A stretch of 25,730 nucleotides of DNA from a virus. Lineage: Duplodnaviria > Caudoviricetes. The stretch spans positions 1 to 25,730 of IMG/VR virus record IMGVR_UViG_3300020045_007810. One strand, given 5' to 3'. The notes beneath the pieces were generated by a model. It was not told where the DNA came from and ran no database searches. It was given only the letters and a program-made list of their open reading frames with translations. This document shows, piece by piece, positions 7,605-21,475 of the stretch. Made by a program: the position numbers and the translations under genes. Each line of letters begins with the position of its first letter. Within the stretch, counting starts at the first letter, position 1.

Positions 7605-8537
7605 ATGAGTACAATCGCACAAATATCTGGAAAAAACGTTAACTGCGGAGACGTAGGGGCGGACACGGGTTCTTTAGGATGCCAATTGGAATTTGGAACT
7701 CCTTTGCACGCAATAGGATTAAGAAAAGGTACAATCATACCTAAGGATACTATTTTTGATAAAGTATTTATAGATACTTTAGTACAAATGGGTATTGCAA
7801 CACCTGCTATAGACGCAGATTCATTTGAAGAAACATCTTCAGAAGATACAATGAATACAAACTCAAGAGGCGTAGATAGACTATCTGTTTTAGGGTTACC
7901 TAAATACCAGTTTACTTATCAACTTGGGCATGAGTTTTACAAGCAGATTGCTAATCTTACGTCATTTAAAAAATTAGACTTCATTTTTGGAGACGACCAA
8001 GGGAACTGGAGAATGGCTGTAAATTCAGATGGCGATTTCCATGGATTTTCATGCGGACAAGTTTTGGCTAAAATGACTAAAACAAAAGTTCAAGGAGGAG
8101 ACCCAGAATCAAAAACAATAATTATCCAAATGCTAAACAGAGAGCAATGGGATAAAAACTATACTATTCTAGAGAGAAGTTTATTGACTTTTTCTCCAGA
8201 AGAATTAGGAGGTTCAAACGGAGTAGAGCTTATTTTAGACCCGATTACCGCTGCAAGTGTTTCTATTTCTGTAAAAGCGGTATTAAAAGCGGATAGAGTT
8301 ACACCTGTATCAGGGTGGACAACAACCGAGTTTAGAGTTACCTCCGATGGAGCTACTTTAGCAGGTACTGTTGCAACAGAAAATGAAGATGGCGATTATA
8401 CAATTTCTATTCCAGCACAAGCAGCGGGTAAAAAAATACAAGTTACTTCTTTTGATGATATTACTAAGACTCAAAGGGTATTAGTTGAAGGAATTGTATT
8501 TTCAGCAGAATCAAACATTGTTAGCGTATCTGCCTGA
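7605..8537 (+). CDS. Major tail (tube) protein with C-terminal Ig-like domain
   Basis: N-terminal C...DTGSLGC motif typical of Bacteroidota phage tube proteins; beta-rich C-terminal ~100 aa; synteny. Ends in TGA followed by an in-frame extension to 8591. Confidence 0.8.
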   Translation: MSTIAQISGKNVNCGDVGADTGSLGCQLEFGTPLHAIGLRKGTIIPKDTIFDKVFIDTLVQMGIATPAIDADSFEETSSEDTMNTNSRGVDRLSVLGLPKYQFTYQLGHEFYKQIANLTSFKKLDFIFGDDQGNWRMAVNSDGDFHGFSCGQVLAKMTKTKVQGGDPESKTIIIQMLNREQWDKNYTILERSLLTFSPEELGGSNGVELILDPITAASVSISVKAVLKADRVTPVSGWTTTEFRVTSDGATLAGTVATENEDGDYTISIPAQAAGKKIQVTSFDDITKTQRVLVEGIVFSAESNIVSVSA

Positions 8538-8608
8538 ATAGGACCAACGGCTGGAATATTCAAATTACAGTTTACTAATCAATTTACTTAGCCCTAAAAA
8601 CCATTATC

Positions 8609-9127
8609 ATGGATGACACTCAATTAAAATCACAAATAGACAGTCAAATCACATCGCAAACTGATGTAGATTCAATATCTCCTACAATAGTTGGCGAAAA
8701 CATGAAGGCTATTATTGATTTATCAGTACAAGAAACTAGATTAAAGATTGTTAAAACAATAATACCAACGGCAAGCGTTCTTCAATTGTTTACAACTCCT
8801 GTGACAATATTAGATTCGACAGAGGCCGGCAAGATAAAGTTTCCTATTAGCGTATATGTAAAAAGATTAACCGGCAACGCTTACGCGCTAGCTACCTCGT
8901 CTTTTAGCGTAATAAACGATTTTGGAACTGCTTTATCAGCAAATCTTAATCCTAATCCATTAATAAGTACGCCTGAAGGTTATTTTCAATCTGCTATTAG
9001 TTTATATCAAAATAATAGCGGAGGTAGCAAGAATGCTCTTTATAAGTTAAAAGCCAACTCCGGCGACCCGACGTTAGGCACTGGAGATTTAGAGGTTTAT
9101 ACTACCTATATTGAAATAATAGAATAA
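8609..9127 (+). CDS. Putative tail decoration / accessory virion protein
   Basis: N-terminal helix QLKSQIDSQIT...SISPTIVGENMKAIID followed by a beta-rich domain ending GTGDLEVYTTY. Confidence 0.6.
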   Translation: MDDTQLKSQIDSQITSQTDVDSISPTIVGENMKAIIDLSVQETRLKIVKTIIPTASVLQLFTTPVTILDSTEAGKIKFPISVYVKRLTGNAYALATSSFSVINDFGTALSANLNPNPLISTPEGYFQSAISLYQNNSGGSKNALYKLKANSGDPTLGTGDLEVYTTYIEIIE

Positions 9128-9137
9128 ATTAATAAAT

Positions 9138-9170
9138 TCCCCTCTTAATACAACTAGAGGGGATTTTTTT
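9138..9170 (+). terminator. Rho-independent terminator
   Basis: TCCCCTCT (9138-45)/AGAGGGGA (9156-63) stem followed by T7. Confidence 0.85.
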
Positions 9171-15969: not shown

Positions 15970-16272
15970 ATGTTAGAAATAATAAACGGAATAGATTCTG
16001 TTATATTGGGCTGGAATCACGCTCAATGCGATGAAGGAATATCTCATTATAGAATATATATAAACGACGCTATAGGAAGAAATATAGTAGGCAATATTAA
16101 TTCTATAATATATGATGGATTAGAACAACAAGTGGAATATTCATTTTACATAGTAGCGGTTACTAATAAAAATAGGATAAGTGAAAAGTCTAACACTATA
16201 AGAATAATGTTGGATTTAACAAGCCCACAAGTTAATTTTAAATTAAACTTTAACTTAAACTTCAATTTATAA
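15970..16272 (+). CDS. Fibronectin type III domain protein with C-terminal aromatic repeat
   Basis: SVILGW...YRIY...GLEQQVEYSFYIVAV...SEKSN FN3 pattern; ends NFKLNFNLNFNL. Confidence 0.75.
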   Translation: MLEIINGIDSVILGWNHAQCDEGISHYRIYINDAIGRNIVGNINSIIYDGLEQQVEYSFYIVAVTNKNRISEKSNTIRIMLDLTSPQVNFKLNFNLNFNL

Positions 16273-16607
16273 TGAGCTCGCTAAAAATAACATACGAAGA
16301 CAAGGAAGCTGTAAATCCTCCTGGCATAAGAAAGAATCAAGCACAAGATGCTGACTTTAATGAAATAAAAGACGTTGTAAATTCTCATGCGGACTCAATA
16401 GACATATCGTTGCTAAAAAGTGCTGCGAATTTATTTAAGTTTGTTCAGAAAGGATTTGGAAACAATGATTTAGAAAACAATCAAGTAGGAGATATTTTTT
16501 GCGGTTGGAGAAATGATGGATTAGTAAGATATTCTGAAGCTATATGGAATGGAGGAGCGTTATCGGACTCAAATAATTTTACGCCGTTAGTACAAACAGA
16601 AATTTAG
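16272..16607 (+). CDS. Small tail-associated protein
   Basis: KITYEDK...DADFNEIKDVVN N-terminal helix; TAATG-coupled to the FN3 gene. Confidence 0.65.
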   Translation: MSSLKITYEDKEAVNPPGIRKNQAQDADFNEIKDVVNSHADSIDISLLKSAANLFKFVQKGFGNNDLENNQVGDIFCGWRNDGLVRYSEAIWNGGALSDSNNFTPLVQTEI

Positions 16608-16628
16608 AAACAATTAAAACAATCAAAT

Positions 16629-19600
16629 ATGAAAAAAACAGTATTATTAGTGTTATTGGTTTTTATATCAGTAATAACTCGAGGCCAAACAACTTTGGCT
16701 AATAAATTAAAAATAACTGGTAACACAACAAGTGTTGGTGCACAAAAGGTAAATGTTCAAGAAGCTGATGGCTTTGTTAATACAATACCAAAATCAGACC
16801 TTGTTGATGTGCTTGAATACGGTACAGCATCTGCATTGCCAATAACTGGTGTCGCTTCAAAAATATATATAACAACTGATGACAATAAGTTATATAGGTG
16901 GAACGGAACATTTTATGAAGAAGTATCGTATGCTGGCGATTATAATCTTAAACAAACTGTATTTACTGGGATTTGCCAAAAGCAATACTTAACAGAAAAT
17001 GATATAGTAGTAGATAATTCAGCAACAACACTTACTATATCTACGGTTAAAAACGGGGAAACAATTTCAGCTGGTAATCCTATTAGGTTTTTTACAGACG
17101 GAAATGGTATAGCTGTTATGCATGAAAAATCAAGTCCTGTAGTTTTTAATTTTACAAACACTACTGGAATCTGGTATTTTTATTTTAATAGTGCAGGTAC
17201 CCCGATAGCAACGCAAACACCATGGAACGATTTTTCAACTATAGCAACTGTCTACAGATTTTATTGGAATGCAACTTTAGGAGTTGCAGATAGACGAGTA
17301 ATTGAAAGTGTTGAGTATCATAAAAATGATATAAGTTGGTCAGACCACGCTTGGAAACACTTAGACGGAGCTAAATGGTCAAGCGGACTTACCGCATCTA
17401 GCAACGCAATTTCAACTGGTGCACCTGCTGTAGATGGTTCGAATGCTGTAATAACGCTATCAAGCGGTACTATTTTGGATGACAACATTTACTATACACT
17501 GACGAATGCTGCTACTGGTACGGTTAAATTCACTCAGAATTTAGGCACAGGATTGCTACCAGCAACAGCAGGTAAGTTTATTTGCATTTCGAATAGCACA
17601 TCCGGATTATTAGAAAAAATTCCTGCAACCGATTTTCCATTTCTTTGGAATAGCGGAACCAACACTCCAGAATATTTGACTGTAAACGGCACACGTACAG
17701 CTGTAACGGCTAATAATTATTTCGTTTACTATGTTTACGCTTTGCAAGACCCCCGTTACGGGGAAACGATTAAAATCAAAAGTGCGGAAACTGATTTCGC
17801 AAATTTAACACTCGCACAAGCGCACAATTGGGAACAATTGCAAACGCTTTTCCCAACTCTTCGCGACGGTGAAATTCGATTACTGTATAAACTTACTTTC
17901 GAATACAAAACCAGCTACGATATTGGCACAAAGAAAAGTGTGTTGAGATATGTGGACGATTTGAGGAAGCAAAAAACAACTACTACGGCTGTGGCTTCGG
18001 GAACAGTGCCAGCTACGAATGTAAGCGTTTCGCCTGTTGGTGGAATTTCTTCTACTAATGTTCAGAGTGCGTTGCAAGAGTTGGATAGTGAAACTGTGAA
18101 ATTAACAGGAAATCAAACAATTGACGGAAACAAAACCTTATCAAAAAGCTTAAATATGCTTTCCGTGGATTTGCCTTATTCAGCCCTAACCGCTGTATCA
18201 GCAGGGGCAGGAGTGTTAAGTGGTGATTTTGTTTGGGGGTTATCGTTTTACACCGCAGAGGGTAAGGAAACAGGGGTAGGAGGTATTTCTTCTGTTGTAA
18301 CGCTATCATCTAATAAAGCAATGGTAACTATACCGACTTCGCCAAACAGTTTAGTTGTGGGTAGAAAATTATATAGGACAAATAGCTCACTTGGAGAAAC
18401 AAGATTGATGCAATTAGTGGTAGATATTCCAAATAATACCGCAACAACCTATGAGGACAATATTTCTAATGGGTCACTTGGTTCTATTCCTATTTGGTTT
18501 AATACAACAGGTGGCGAGATTAAAATTAATGACCAGCGAATTTTTAGCACAAACGGGCAAAATACCGCTATTGGGATTTATGCCAATCCAAGCAATACAG
18601 GTTATGCTAATCAGTCAGTGGGTAATTTTGCGGGGTATAGTTTGACAAGCGGGTACAGAAATGTTTTTTCGGGTTTGTATTCTGGATACGGAACAACAGG
18701 GGGATTTATGAATACAGCCACAGGCGTGCATTCATTGAACTTCAACCCCAATGGTCGTGAAAATTGCGCTTATGGTTTTTCTTCATTAATGTACAATACT
18801 GGTGATGATAATACAGCTTTAGGCACTTTTTCTTTTGCTGAAAACATATCTGGTTCAAGAAACGTAGGTATAGGTGCTGGCGCGGGACAACACGAAATGG
18901 GCAGTTATAAGTTTTACCTAAATAACCATCCAATTAGTAATAACGCGGAAGAACGAACAAATTCTTTGATGTATGGTGAATTTGACAATGACCCGCTTTA
19001 TCAAAATTTAAGAATAAATGCGAGTGTCGGTATCGGCAAATATCCTACCCAAAAATTAGATGTTGAAGGAAATGTTTTAACGAGCAGTTTTTTAATGAGA
19101 GGGGCCTTTTCGAAAGGATGTTTAGCCGGAGGTCAGGATAATTTAGGTAGCACCGGAAGCAAAACTAATCCTATCTATATAATAGGCACAGGATATGCGC
19201 CTACTGATGATTCTCTTGGAAGTATGTTTGGGGTTGGTTACGCAAATAACGGACTTTGGGGTGGAGGAAAAGTAGATAGTTGGGCGCTGTATGTGGCACA
19301 AGGCGGTACAATTCAATCAATTATAGGTGACGATATATGGACAAACGGGAATGTAAAAGCAACAAATTACATAGGTTCAGCAAACCTTACAGACACGCCA
19401 ACAGCCCCAACAGCAACGGCAGGGACAGATACAGACCAGATTGCTACAACTAAGTTTGTGCAGGAAAGCAAAATATTACCCGTAACCGAAACAGGAACAT
19501 CATTTTCATTAACCGATGCCTACAACGGTAAAGTAGTAATTTTCACAGCGAGTTGCACGGTAACAATTCCCAACGGGTTAGTGGCTAATTTTGAATGTAG

Positions 19601-19754
19601 TTTTGTAACTTTGACAGGCGTGACATTGACGGTTGCAACAGGGGGCAGCGTAGTGCTTCATAATAATGCAGGCACTACAATGGCCGAAAAATTAAGCGCT
19701 ACAATCAAACAGAGAACAACGTTAAACAATTATATAGTAGTAGGCTCATTATGA
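16629..19754 (+). CDS. Tail fibre/adhesin-like protein with N-terminal signal peptide
   Basis: Fibre motifs STNVQSALQEL, TGNQTIDGNKT and APTATAGTDTDQIATTKFV; NTAxG/NVGIG beta-roll repeats; VGIGKYPTQKLDVEGN. N-terminus MKKTVLLVLLVFISVITRG-Q. Confidence 0.75.
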   Translation: MKKTVLLVLLVFISVITRGQTTLANKLKITGNTTSVGAQKVNVQEADGFVNTIPKSDLVDVLEYGTASALPITGVASKIYITTDDNKLYRWNGTFYEEVSYAGDYNLKQTVFTGICQKQYLTENDIVVDNSATTLTISTVKNGETISAGNPIRFFTDGNGIAVMHEKSSPVVFNFTNTTGIWYFYFNSAGTPIATQTPWNDFSTIATVYRFYWNATLGVADRRVIESVEYHKNDISWSDHAWKHLDGAKWSSGLTASSNAISTGAPAVDGSNAVITLSSGTILDDNIYYTLTNAATGTVKFTQNLGTGLLPATAGKFICISNSTSGLLEKIPATDFPFLWNSGTNTPEYLTVNGTRTAVTANNYFVYYVYALQDPRYGETIKIKSAETDFANLTLAQAHNWEQLQTLFPTLRDGEIRLLYKLTFEYKTSYDIGTKKSVLRYVDDLRKQKTTTTAVASGTVPATNVSVSPVGGISSTNVQSALQELDSETVKLTGNQTIDGNKTLSKSLNMLSVDLPYSALTAVSAGAGVLSGDFVWGLSFYTAEGKETGVGGISSVVTLSSNKAMVTIPTSPNSLVVGRKLYRTNSSLGETRLMQLVVDIPNNTATTYEDNISNGSLGSIPIWFNTTGGEIKINDQRIFSTNGQNTAIGIYANPSNTGYANQSVGNFAGYSLTSGYRNVFSGLYSGYGTTGGFMNTATGVHSLNFNPNGRENCAYGFSSLMYNTGDDNTALGTFSFAENISGSRNVGIGAGAGQHEMGSYKFYLNNHPISNNAEERTNSLMYGEFDNDPLYQNLRINASVGIGKYPTQKLDVEGNVLTSSFLMRGAFSKGCLAGGQDNLGSTGSKTNPIYIIGTGYAPTDDSLGSMFGVGYANNGLWGGGKVDSWALYVAQGGTIQSIIGDDIWTNGNVKATNYIGSANLTDTPTAPTATAGTDTDQIATTKFVQESKILPVTETGTSFSLTDAYNGKVVIFTASCTVTIPNGLVANFECSFVTLTGVTLTVATGGSVVLHNNAGTTMAEKLSATIKQRTTLNNYIVVGSL

Positions 19755-21472
19755 AAAAATATATCTTAATATTATTTAGTGTTTTTGCTTTTGGGCAATC
19801 GGGATTGATTGCAAGGCAGAATTTCGCATACAAAGCAGTTTCAACAGGAACAAACACCGAAATCGGAGGAGTTGCTGCAACAATCTCAACACCTGCTTTA
19901 TTAGCTACTAAACTTGGTATTGATGTAAGCAGGATTAGTAATTTCAGTATAGTAGGCAGCGATATTAAATGTAAGATTACAGGGAGTTACGGGGCGTCTA
20001 TAAGTACTTTTTTAAATGACAGCTCTATAACTTATTATTATGACTATGATGACTTAGTAAATACCTTGCCTAGTCAAATGTTTTATAACGCAACTAATTT
20101 TTATGATTTTAAATTAGACGGAGTATCTTCTATAAGTCAGAGATGTTTTCAAAACACAAAATTAAATTTAATTTATTTGCCAAATTTAACAAGTGCGCCC
20201 ATAATTTCTTTTAATGAAATTTCACAAAATAAAAGCTTTCCTACACAAATATATATACCTAATTGTGCAACTTTAGGAGTGAATGTAAACACTAATGAAA
20301 ATGTTTTTTTTGGTATTACATCAGGAAGCATTATTTATGCACATCCAAGCCTGGCTACGGTCAATTCTGGGGGGGTTGAGGCAGATTTAGCCTATGCAAT
20401 AACACAGGGAGCAATAGTACGCTACGTCACAAACTTCACAACTCCAAATCCAGTGGCAGATTTAGCAGCAGGAGCAATTTATAATACAGCGGTACAATTG
20501 AATTTTACACCTCCAAGCAGTACGAATGCAATTGAGTATTATGAGTGCTATGCTAATGGTGTTTTTAAAAATAGAGTTCTCGGAAGCGGGCAATTCATAA
20601 ATAGCTTGTCTCAAAACACGAATTACAATCTAACTGTTTATGCCGTTGATATTTTTTTAAATAAAAGTTTAGCTTCAAATGTTGTAAACACAACTACCAC
20701 TAATTCATTAGCCGATACAGATGCAGTAGCCTACACTTCCGCATCAAGTAATACAAGCTACCAATATATCATTCAAGATTTGTATAAAATGCTAAAAGAT
20801 AATTCTCTTTACGCTAAATTACAAGCTTTTTATCCCTTCTTAGGGACAACATCTGCACAACATAAATGGAACGGTAAAAATCCACTTGATACGGATGCAG
20901 CTTTTAGATTAACTTTTTCAGGCACAGCAACATTTAGCGGTAGCGGATACACCCCTAATGGAAGCACGGGGTACGCCAATACTTATTTTATTCCAAGTAC
21001 GAATCAAAATGTAAACAGCAATGGGTTGACTTTAGTTTGTGGCACAAATAATGCCGCAGCAGGTGGAGACGTAGTAGAATTAGGCTCGTTTAATTCTGTA
21101 TCGCAAGCCTCTACATTAACTGTTAAAAATAATAATTCTACTTATGGTAAATTAAGCAGAATGAATGGTTCTGTGATTCAATATTTAGGCAATAATGAGA
21201 GTAGAGGGATTTTTACAGGAACAAAACAAAGCTCAACTGTTACAGATTTGTTCAGGAATGGCACTCAATTATCCACAGGAAACAGCGGAGGAACTTTACC
21301 AACTATATCTTGTTATATTGGGGCTTTGAATTTAAACGGTTCGCCTTATGGCTATTCAAATCAAAGATTTCAATTCACAGCAATTCACGAAGGCTTAAGT
21401 GACGTAGAAGTAGCAACTTTACACACAATTATAGACACATTTGAAACAGCTTTAGGGCGCAAAACTTGGTAA
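19751..21472 (+). CDS. Multidomain protein: signal peptide, BspA-like LRR, FN3, ConA/LamG-like domain
   Basis: MKKYILILFSVFAFG-Q; LPSQMFYNA and ISQRCFQNTKLNLIYLPNL repeats; PNPVADL...YNLTVYAVD FN3; C-terminal AFYPFLG...GLSDVEVATL. Confidence 0.7.
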   Translation: MKKYILILFSVFAFGQSGLIARQNFAYKAVSTGTNTEIGGVAATISTPALLATKLGIDVSRISNFSIVGSDIKCKITGSYGASISTFLNDSSITYYYDYDDLVNTLPSQMFYNATNFYDFKLDGVSSISQRCFQNTKLNLIYLPNLTSAPIISFNEISQNKSFPTQIYIPNCATLGVNVNTNENVFFGITSGSIIYAHPSLATVNSGGVEADLAYAITQGAIVRYVTNFTTPNPVADLAAGAIYNTAVQLNFTPPSSTNAIEYYECYANGVFKNRVLGSGQFINSLSQNTNYNLTVYAVDIFLNKSLASNVVNTTTTNSLADTDAVAYTSASSNTSYQYIIQDLYKMLKDNSLYAKLQAFYPFLGTTSAQHKWNGKNPLDTDAAFRLTFSGTATFSGSGYTPNGSTGYANTYFIPSTNQNVNSNGLTLVCGTNNAAAGGDVVELGSFNSVSQASTLTVKNNNSTYGKLSRMNGSVIQYLGNNESRGIFTGTKQSSTVTDLFRNGTQLSTGNSGGTLPTISCYIGALNLNGSPYGYSNQRFQFTAIHEGLSDVEVATLHTIIDTFETALGRKTW

Positions 21473-21475
21473 AAT

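Follow-up and report, generated by a model that had tools for sequence, protein, structure and literature searches.

The 25,730-nucleotide stretch of viral DNA considered here (hereafter the window) represents a 25.7-kb partial siphophage genome that contains terminase, portal, HK97-type capsid, tape measure, and fibre genes. Within it, the major tail tube gene ends in TGA, its frame stays open into a short, Phe-rich peptide (the tag), and the next gene (8609..9127) encodes a candidate fibre-like protein (the partner). The relevant features are the following.

7605..8537, + strand: major tail tube gene, 310 aa, consisting of a tube domain and a C-terminal Ig-like domain (fold and homologue matches)
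8535..8537, + strand: TGA stop in the context GCC TGA ATA (8532-8540), putative readthrough site (all 43 tagged extensions follow TGA)
8538..8591, + strand: 17-codon in-frame extension IGPTAGIFKLQFTNQFT, made of the linker IGPTAG and the tag IFKLQFTNQFT, then TAG (8589-91) (read from the sequence)
8609..8734, + strand: N-terminal helix-loop-helix domain of the partner, ~42 aa, putative tag-binding anchor (model helices 3-15 and 25-40)
8735..9127, + strand: beta-sandwich head of the partner, 130 aa, putative trimeric adhesin-like tip (model and weak fold matches)
9138..9170, + strand: terminator-like hairpin with a 10-nt loop and a T run (fold z -1.97; not called by the consensus scan)
15970..16272, + strand: fn3-domain gene whose in-frame end is NFKLNFNLNFNL, possibly a second tag (16237-16269)

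The tail-tube assignment made in the initial annotation is borne out by the predicted structure of the 7605..8537 product (pLDDT 88.6), whose best Foldseek matches are lambda gpV (E 3e-7), T5 pb6 (E 1e-6), and the neck structure of phage Chi; a Pfam Big_6 match is weak (E 4e-4) and lies below its cut-off. Since the cultured relatives of this protein are found solely among Flavobacterium phages (46 records, 24% identical, Lillamyvirus homologues included), the host probably belongs to the Flavobacteriaceae. A window protein scan of viral contigs and two genome-contig scans gave no match, and no prophage or named host.

The architecture of the stop region is exactly as initially described, with a GCC TGA ATA end, 17 open codons, a TAG at 8589-91, and a gap of 17 nt to the partner ATG at 8609; the three Phe codons of the extension lie at 8559, 8571, and 8583. 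The 28 called genes of the window end in TAA (21), TAG (3), or TGA (4), and the tube-gene TGA is, as had also been claimed, the only free-standing one, the remaining three (19754, 21859, and 22056) all falling within ATGA/GTGA overlaps. In 200,000 shuffles of the 71-nt spacer, an open frame of at least 17 codons was common (29%), whereas [FY]xxxFxxx[FY] as a terminal motif was rare (72 shuffles).

Distribution of the tag, the TGA, and the partner gene

Within the window's own tube family, 74 distinct 3′ ends from fetched loci divide into 60 TAA, 11 TAG, and 3 TGA enders. The FxxxFxxxF peptide and the partner gene accompany all three TGA enders (the window, L005, and L271, the last of which was found via a partner search and not the tube search) and none of the 71 TAA/TAG enders; relatives that lack the cassette simply terminate in TAA or TAG. 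All 107 protein homologues of the window tube are 300-316 aa long, and none carries a sense codon in place of the TGA. In two TAA enders (L038 and L007), a terminator-like hairpin directly follows the tube stop, and in the window ~590 bp comprising the tag and the partner gene lie between the tube stop and such a hairpin; the cassette is thus an insertion between stop and hairpin. The three tagged tubes share 26-64% identity among themselves, versus 71-90% with untagged neighbours, and being closer to these neighbours than to one another they point to separate gains or losses.

Two further observations concern the same family. The L271 and L287 tubes (L271:2438-2950; L287:1610-2755) are 90% identical; the partner follows the TGA tag on the tube in L271 and an in-frame tag on a 291-aa protein in L287, so that, given this difference in tag placement between such similar tubes, the fibre appears to change the site at which it is anchored. 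In L004 (3001-4207), the tube itself reaches 402 aa through an in-frame extension, probably a further domain, which would represent another route to tail decoration.

The N-terminus of the partner matches gp37 of Flavobacterium phage 11b, a phage of an Arctic host. Immediately upstream of gp37 lies gp36, which encodes a 146-aa major tail protein (PHROG 1407) without detectable homology to the window tube; it too ends in TGA, followed by TSVFSDTFALTFE, an extension left unannotated in the 11b record. Among the best 80 of 179 relatives of this tube, reduced to 66 distinct ends by removal of 13 duplicates and one truncated sequence, the tag is intact in 26 of 28 TGA enders versus 0 of 38 TAA/TAG enders. 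The corresponding Fisher p of 2e-16 overstates independence, the loci being related and many stemming from few sample series; likewise, queries seeded from TGA-type tubes inflate the TGA share, although not the association. In both exceptions (L337 and L353, 2439-2610 in each), the TGA is kept, the tag sequence lies behind a premature TAA, and the partner ORF is lost or eroded. On a maximum-likelihood tree of 76 tubes (147 columns), many forks of which are unresolved, the tag label changes 14 times, compared with a mean of 25 for shuffled labels, and at least 9 of the 14 changes are forced by well-supported branches. The cassette is therefore clustered yet mobile, and on this tree has been gained or lost at least nine times.

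A third family of carriers is represented by the TGA case in L288, which sits on an MP2-like protein. None of eight cultured phages of the MP2 family is tagged, and three of the eight nonetheless end in TGA, so that TGA alone is not diagnostic. The L288 protein (1714-2331) belongs to PHROG 8193, labelled major head protein, with members described as tail or capsid depending on the record; a tail-tube role fits, given that it bears the tube-type cassette. Alignment with hhalign found no homology between the three carrier families, a comparison of profile against single sequence that leaves room for remote homology.

The comparison of 3′ ends among tail-gene homologues thus uncovered a conserved TGA with an in-frame FxxxFxxxF in 43 loci, distributed over three tube or putative tail families that lack detectable sequence homology, which amounts at the sequence level to the conserved stop and conserved in-frame extension by which programmed readthrough is recognized. 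With the identical TGA recurring in 42 other loci, a sequencing error or private nonsense mutation, which would have undone the initial proposal, is very unlikely. Every tagged locus of the 43 adjoins a homologue of the partner's N-terminal domain, save one whose contig ends within the partner gene. The TGA, the in-frame peptide, and the next gene are thereby confirmed, on comparative sequence grounds, as one portable cassette.

Viewed from the partner, the association is equally tight. The tag lies directly upstream of the 42-residue N-terminal domain in 56 of 57 distinct loci, the sole miss (L256) having a degenerate in-frame tag. It stands behind TGA in 42 of these 56, in frame on other proteins in 14 (one of them, L289, a broken gene), and behind TAA or TAG in none. 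The in-frame carriers are mostly 134-295 aa long, belong to at least two other families, and have no PHROG name; outside the tube genes, therefore, the tag is genuinely the C-terminus of a protein. Across the long-ORF stops of the phage loci (n = 1,155), the tag follows 42 of 175 TGA, 0 of 163 TAG, and 1 of 817 TAA codons. Chance matches to this short, Phe-rich motif do arise: the single case behind TAA, located in the window, is one, and another occurs in 11b. A DNA pattern scan of roughly 12 of 64 parts of the collection returned 120 loci, of which 5 were real cassettes and the rest mostly noise.

These counts bear on whether the tag is expressed from tube genes at all. The cassette might be a silent hitch-hiker, taken from an in-frame tagged gene, with the TGA silencing the tag and the partner acting elsewhere or not at all. 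The clear mobility of the cassette, the additional in-frame tag in the window, and the fact that no tube homologue reads a sense codon at the TGA position are compatible with such an origin. However, a silencing stop would be expected to be mostly TAA, as are 817 of the 1,155 long-ORF stops, yet none of the 43 tube tags stands behind TAA or TAG, and frame and Phe residues are preserved across a synonymous divergence of ~0.5. Moreover, the tube extension is the sole tag available to the partner in phage 11b (it is the only one behind a TGA, and an in-frame tag terminates none of the 65 CDS), so that gp37, if it depends on a tag, can obtain one only by readthrough. We consider silence of the tag improbable.

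Coding signal and decoding of the TGA

The 43 extensions span 13, 14, 17, or 18 codons, all in frame with the preceding gene. The 11 core codons give a pS of 0.52 against a pN of 0.29, which argues for constraint on the extension as protein, in part circularly for the Phe columns, where the pN of 0.03 reflects a motif that itself served as the selection criterion. Among 28 unique cores, the first Phe codon is TTT in 11 and TTC in 17, and the middle one is TTT in all 28. In raw counts over the 43 loci, TGA is followed by A 37 times, by G 5 times, and by T once.

The uniform middle codon, and the possibility that the spacer contains initiation signals for the partner, could be taken to mean that what is conserved works at the RNA or DNA level, or is a micro-ORF translated on its own. 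Against this, the search for RNA structure gave nothing stable or covarying (consensus energy -0.7 kcal/mol; of 7 contexts folded, 6 had z above 0), the extension has no conserved start codon and its first codon varies among ACT, AGT, GCT, GGA, GGC, ACC, ATA, and TTA, and the peptide occurs in frame on long proteins. Such a role is scarcely credible.

Nor is the TGA likely to be sense by design, through Trp reassignment, a suppressor tRNA, or selenocysteine, such that most or all tube subunits would be tagged. The contig is partial, and the other three TGA stops of the window are followed by extensions of 0-6 codons that would cost little if read through. On the other side, the 28 window genes, in which A-ending codons outnumber G-ending ones 4-5 fold, contain 88 TGG and no internal TGA codons, on which grounds reassignment finds no support; the complete 11b genome has 109 TGG codons and 10 TGA stops, and tRNA genes are absent from both the window and 11b. 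Selenocysteine likewise finds no support, there being no conserved bacterial SECIS-type hairpin directly 3′ of the UGA. Altogether, we regard a dedicated sense codon as highly improbable. Frameshifting is not supported as the source of the extension, with all 43 tags in frame 0; two out-of-frame motif matches (L299 and L349) fall inside the next gene.

Ordinary leaky termination fits these data, and very probably a minority of tube subunits gain the tag by UGA readthrough. Host ribosomes would read the TGA through at low frequency, inserting Trp or Cys by near-cognate decoding without a phage tRNA or an RNA stem, and few tube subunits would thus receive a C-terminal tag. No conserved readthrough stimulator or stem was found 3′ of the TGA. 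The initial proposal had also invoked UGA followed by A as a leaky context; the passages of PMC11126739 on stop context name G after the stop as leaky and T as tightening termination, not A. The same source describes the TGA of E. coli as read mainly as Trp, with readthrough rising at low temperature (PMC11126739). By analogy, we infer that UGA decoding in Flavobacterium may behave similarly.

The partner and the proposed docking of the tag

The model of the 8609 product (pLDDT 77) consists of two N-terminal helices and a beta-sandwich head, the latter with weak Foldseek matches to the CBD of the short tail fibre of cyanophage A-1(L) (E 7e-4) and to TNF-like lectins. Pfam, PHROG, and PDB sequence searches provided no name for the partner or its anchor, and no significant PDB match. 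The same head is found elsewhere, preceded by collagen repeats or by other N-termini. Conversely, the proteins headed by the anchor domain form 369 clusters when grouped at 50% identity, and their C-termini vary. Among the best 150 of the 369 representatives, lengths range from 40 to 2001 aa, and 29 have collagen-like repeats right after the anchor, which implies trimers; some anchor proteins, in a scan of 140 of these 150, bear a CBM_5_12, BppL_N, or K1-lyase C-terminal domain. As judged from domain organization, the layout of the anchor proteins is that of trimeric accessory fibres with swappable tips.

By eye, signal-peptide-like leaders ending in AQ, GQ, or SQ are present on tail-fibre-like genes of the window (16629..16688 and 19751..19798), with similar leaders in L286:2450-2500, L288:2440-2500, P0222, P0241, P0260, P0271, P0276, P0277, P0284, and P0285. 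Their presence on fibre-like and some anchor-domain proteins suggests Sec export of phage fibres.

The tag probably docks the partner protein, a reading based on co-occurrence, namely adjacency and joint loss. The three Phe residues would bind the trimeric N-terminal bundle of the partner, and a fibre-like trimer would thereby be docked along the tail. Readthrough would keep decoration sparse on the high-copy tube, other proteins carrying the tag in frame, and the variable partner heads would provide accessory adhesion to the surfaces of hosts or particles. Complex prediction for the natural L285 pair, with three copies each of anchor residues 1-48 and the 33-aa in-frame tag, speaks neither for nor against binding (score 0.01, mark 0.32).

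Co-occurrence in one mobile cassette is no proof of contact. Readthrough could be real with the tag binding another target, such as the tail terminator, an assembly factor, or the tube subunits, or with the extension coupling translation of the partner; in nearly all loci, a mere 3-19 nt separate the stop of the extension from the partner ATG. Yet coupling alone would not preserve three Phe residues at 4-residue spacing. The order of tag and domain is identical where the tag is in frame on other proteins (134-295 aa, from two or more further families), and tag and partner decay together in L337 and L353. We judge a different target or a coupling role unlikely, and place the preferred reading of the tube-gene cassette, that is, readthrough and docking of the partner jointly, at a probability of about 0.65.

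The window offers one further candidate site. The fn3-domain gene with the in-frame tag is followed by a gene (16272..16607) with a different N-terminal domain (KITYEDKE...NEIKxVVN), and the two are possibly a second tag-anchor pair. The pair is weakly conserved, with a full upstream tag in 0 of 6 relatives; the fn3 homologue in L375 keeps two of the Phe residues, and those in L376-L378 are without the tag. The window partner could also dock on the tag at 16237-16269 instead of that of the tube. In the same region, the TAG of 16272..16607 is in frame with a 1041-aa fibre gene through 7 open codons (16605..16628), and further downstream the frame of 19751..21472 is shared, across its TAA, by the gene that follows (21470..21475); either arrangement could be chance or a readthrough fusion.

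More broadly, and tentatively, the cassette may be a portable plug-and-socket system of Flavobacterium-type phages, in which a three-Phe tag that can be grafted onto any virion protein recruits hundreds of interchangeable trimeric adhesins via a 42-residue anchor, the number of sockets on the tube being set by the leakiness of UGA in the host. If so, decoration density would shift with temperature or host stress. The tag would represent a putative, undescribed short-peptide docking module, paired with 369 clusters of unannotated fibre-like proteins, and could explain the swapping of accessory adhesins in aquatic Bacteroidota phages. Gene callers miss the extension; with the cassette present in the cultured phage 11b, these proposals are directly testable.

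Comparison with known systems

Searches of open-access text found no published report of the tag or of readthrough in a tailed-phage tube, the original 11b genome/proteome paper falling outside it, and within the same text no case was found of programmed stop-codon readthrough on a structural gene of a tailed DNA phage. The recoding described in a passage of PMC3091744 concerns the chaperone frameshift only.

In crAss001, the head fibre gp21 and the tail fibre gp22 are trimers that attach through N-terminal residues 1-38 and 1-26, respectively (PMC10172136); the main text of that report does not use the words readthrough, phenylalanine, or hydrophobic. The likeness resides in Bacteroidota phage fibres with a short N-terminal trimeric anchor, as predicted here from the genes. 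In contrast, gp21 and gp22 bind pockets of folded capsid or hub proteins, and the profile of the present anchor matches no PDB sequence.

In the RNA phage Qbeta, readthrough adds a large domain. The A1 coat readthrough protein of this phage was the first case of in-frame readthrough, as recounted in part of PMC8310308. As with A1, a UGA that ends a major virion gene would give rise to a minor, longer structural product. Here, however, a tailed DNA phage adds 13-18 residues that would dock a separately encoded protein, and, unlike in Qbeta, the window-type unit moves between unrelated genes.

The SPP1 protein gp17.1* is a frameshift-extended form of the tail tube protein. Frameshift-derived C-terminal Ig-like extensions of capsid or major tail proteins are described for T3, A2, and the Listeria phages A118, A500, and PSA in the relevant part of PMC5009743. 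The present tubes would resemble these in that recoding adds an outward C-terminal part to a fixed minority of subunits; in both, the module is mobile and in some cases in frame. The addition itself differs from a folded Ig/FN3-like domain, comprising only 13-18 residues, and the Ig-like domain of the window tube precedes the stop. Whereas the frameshift-extended tubes fuse a domain through a +1 or -1 shift, the 43 extensions lie in frame behind TGA and the adhesive domain resides on a separate gene.
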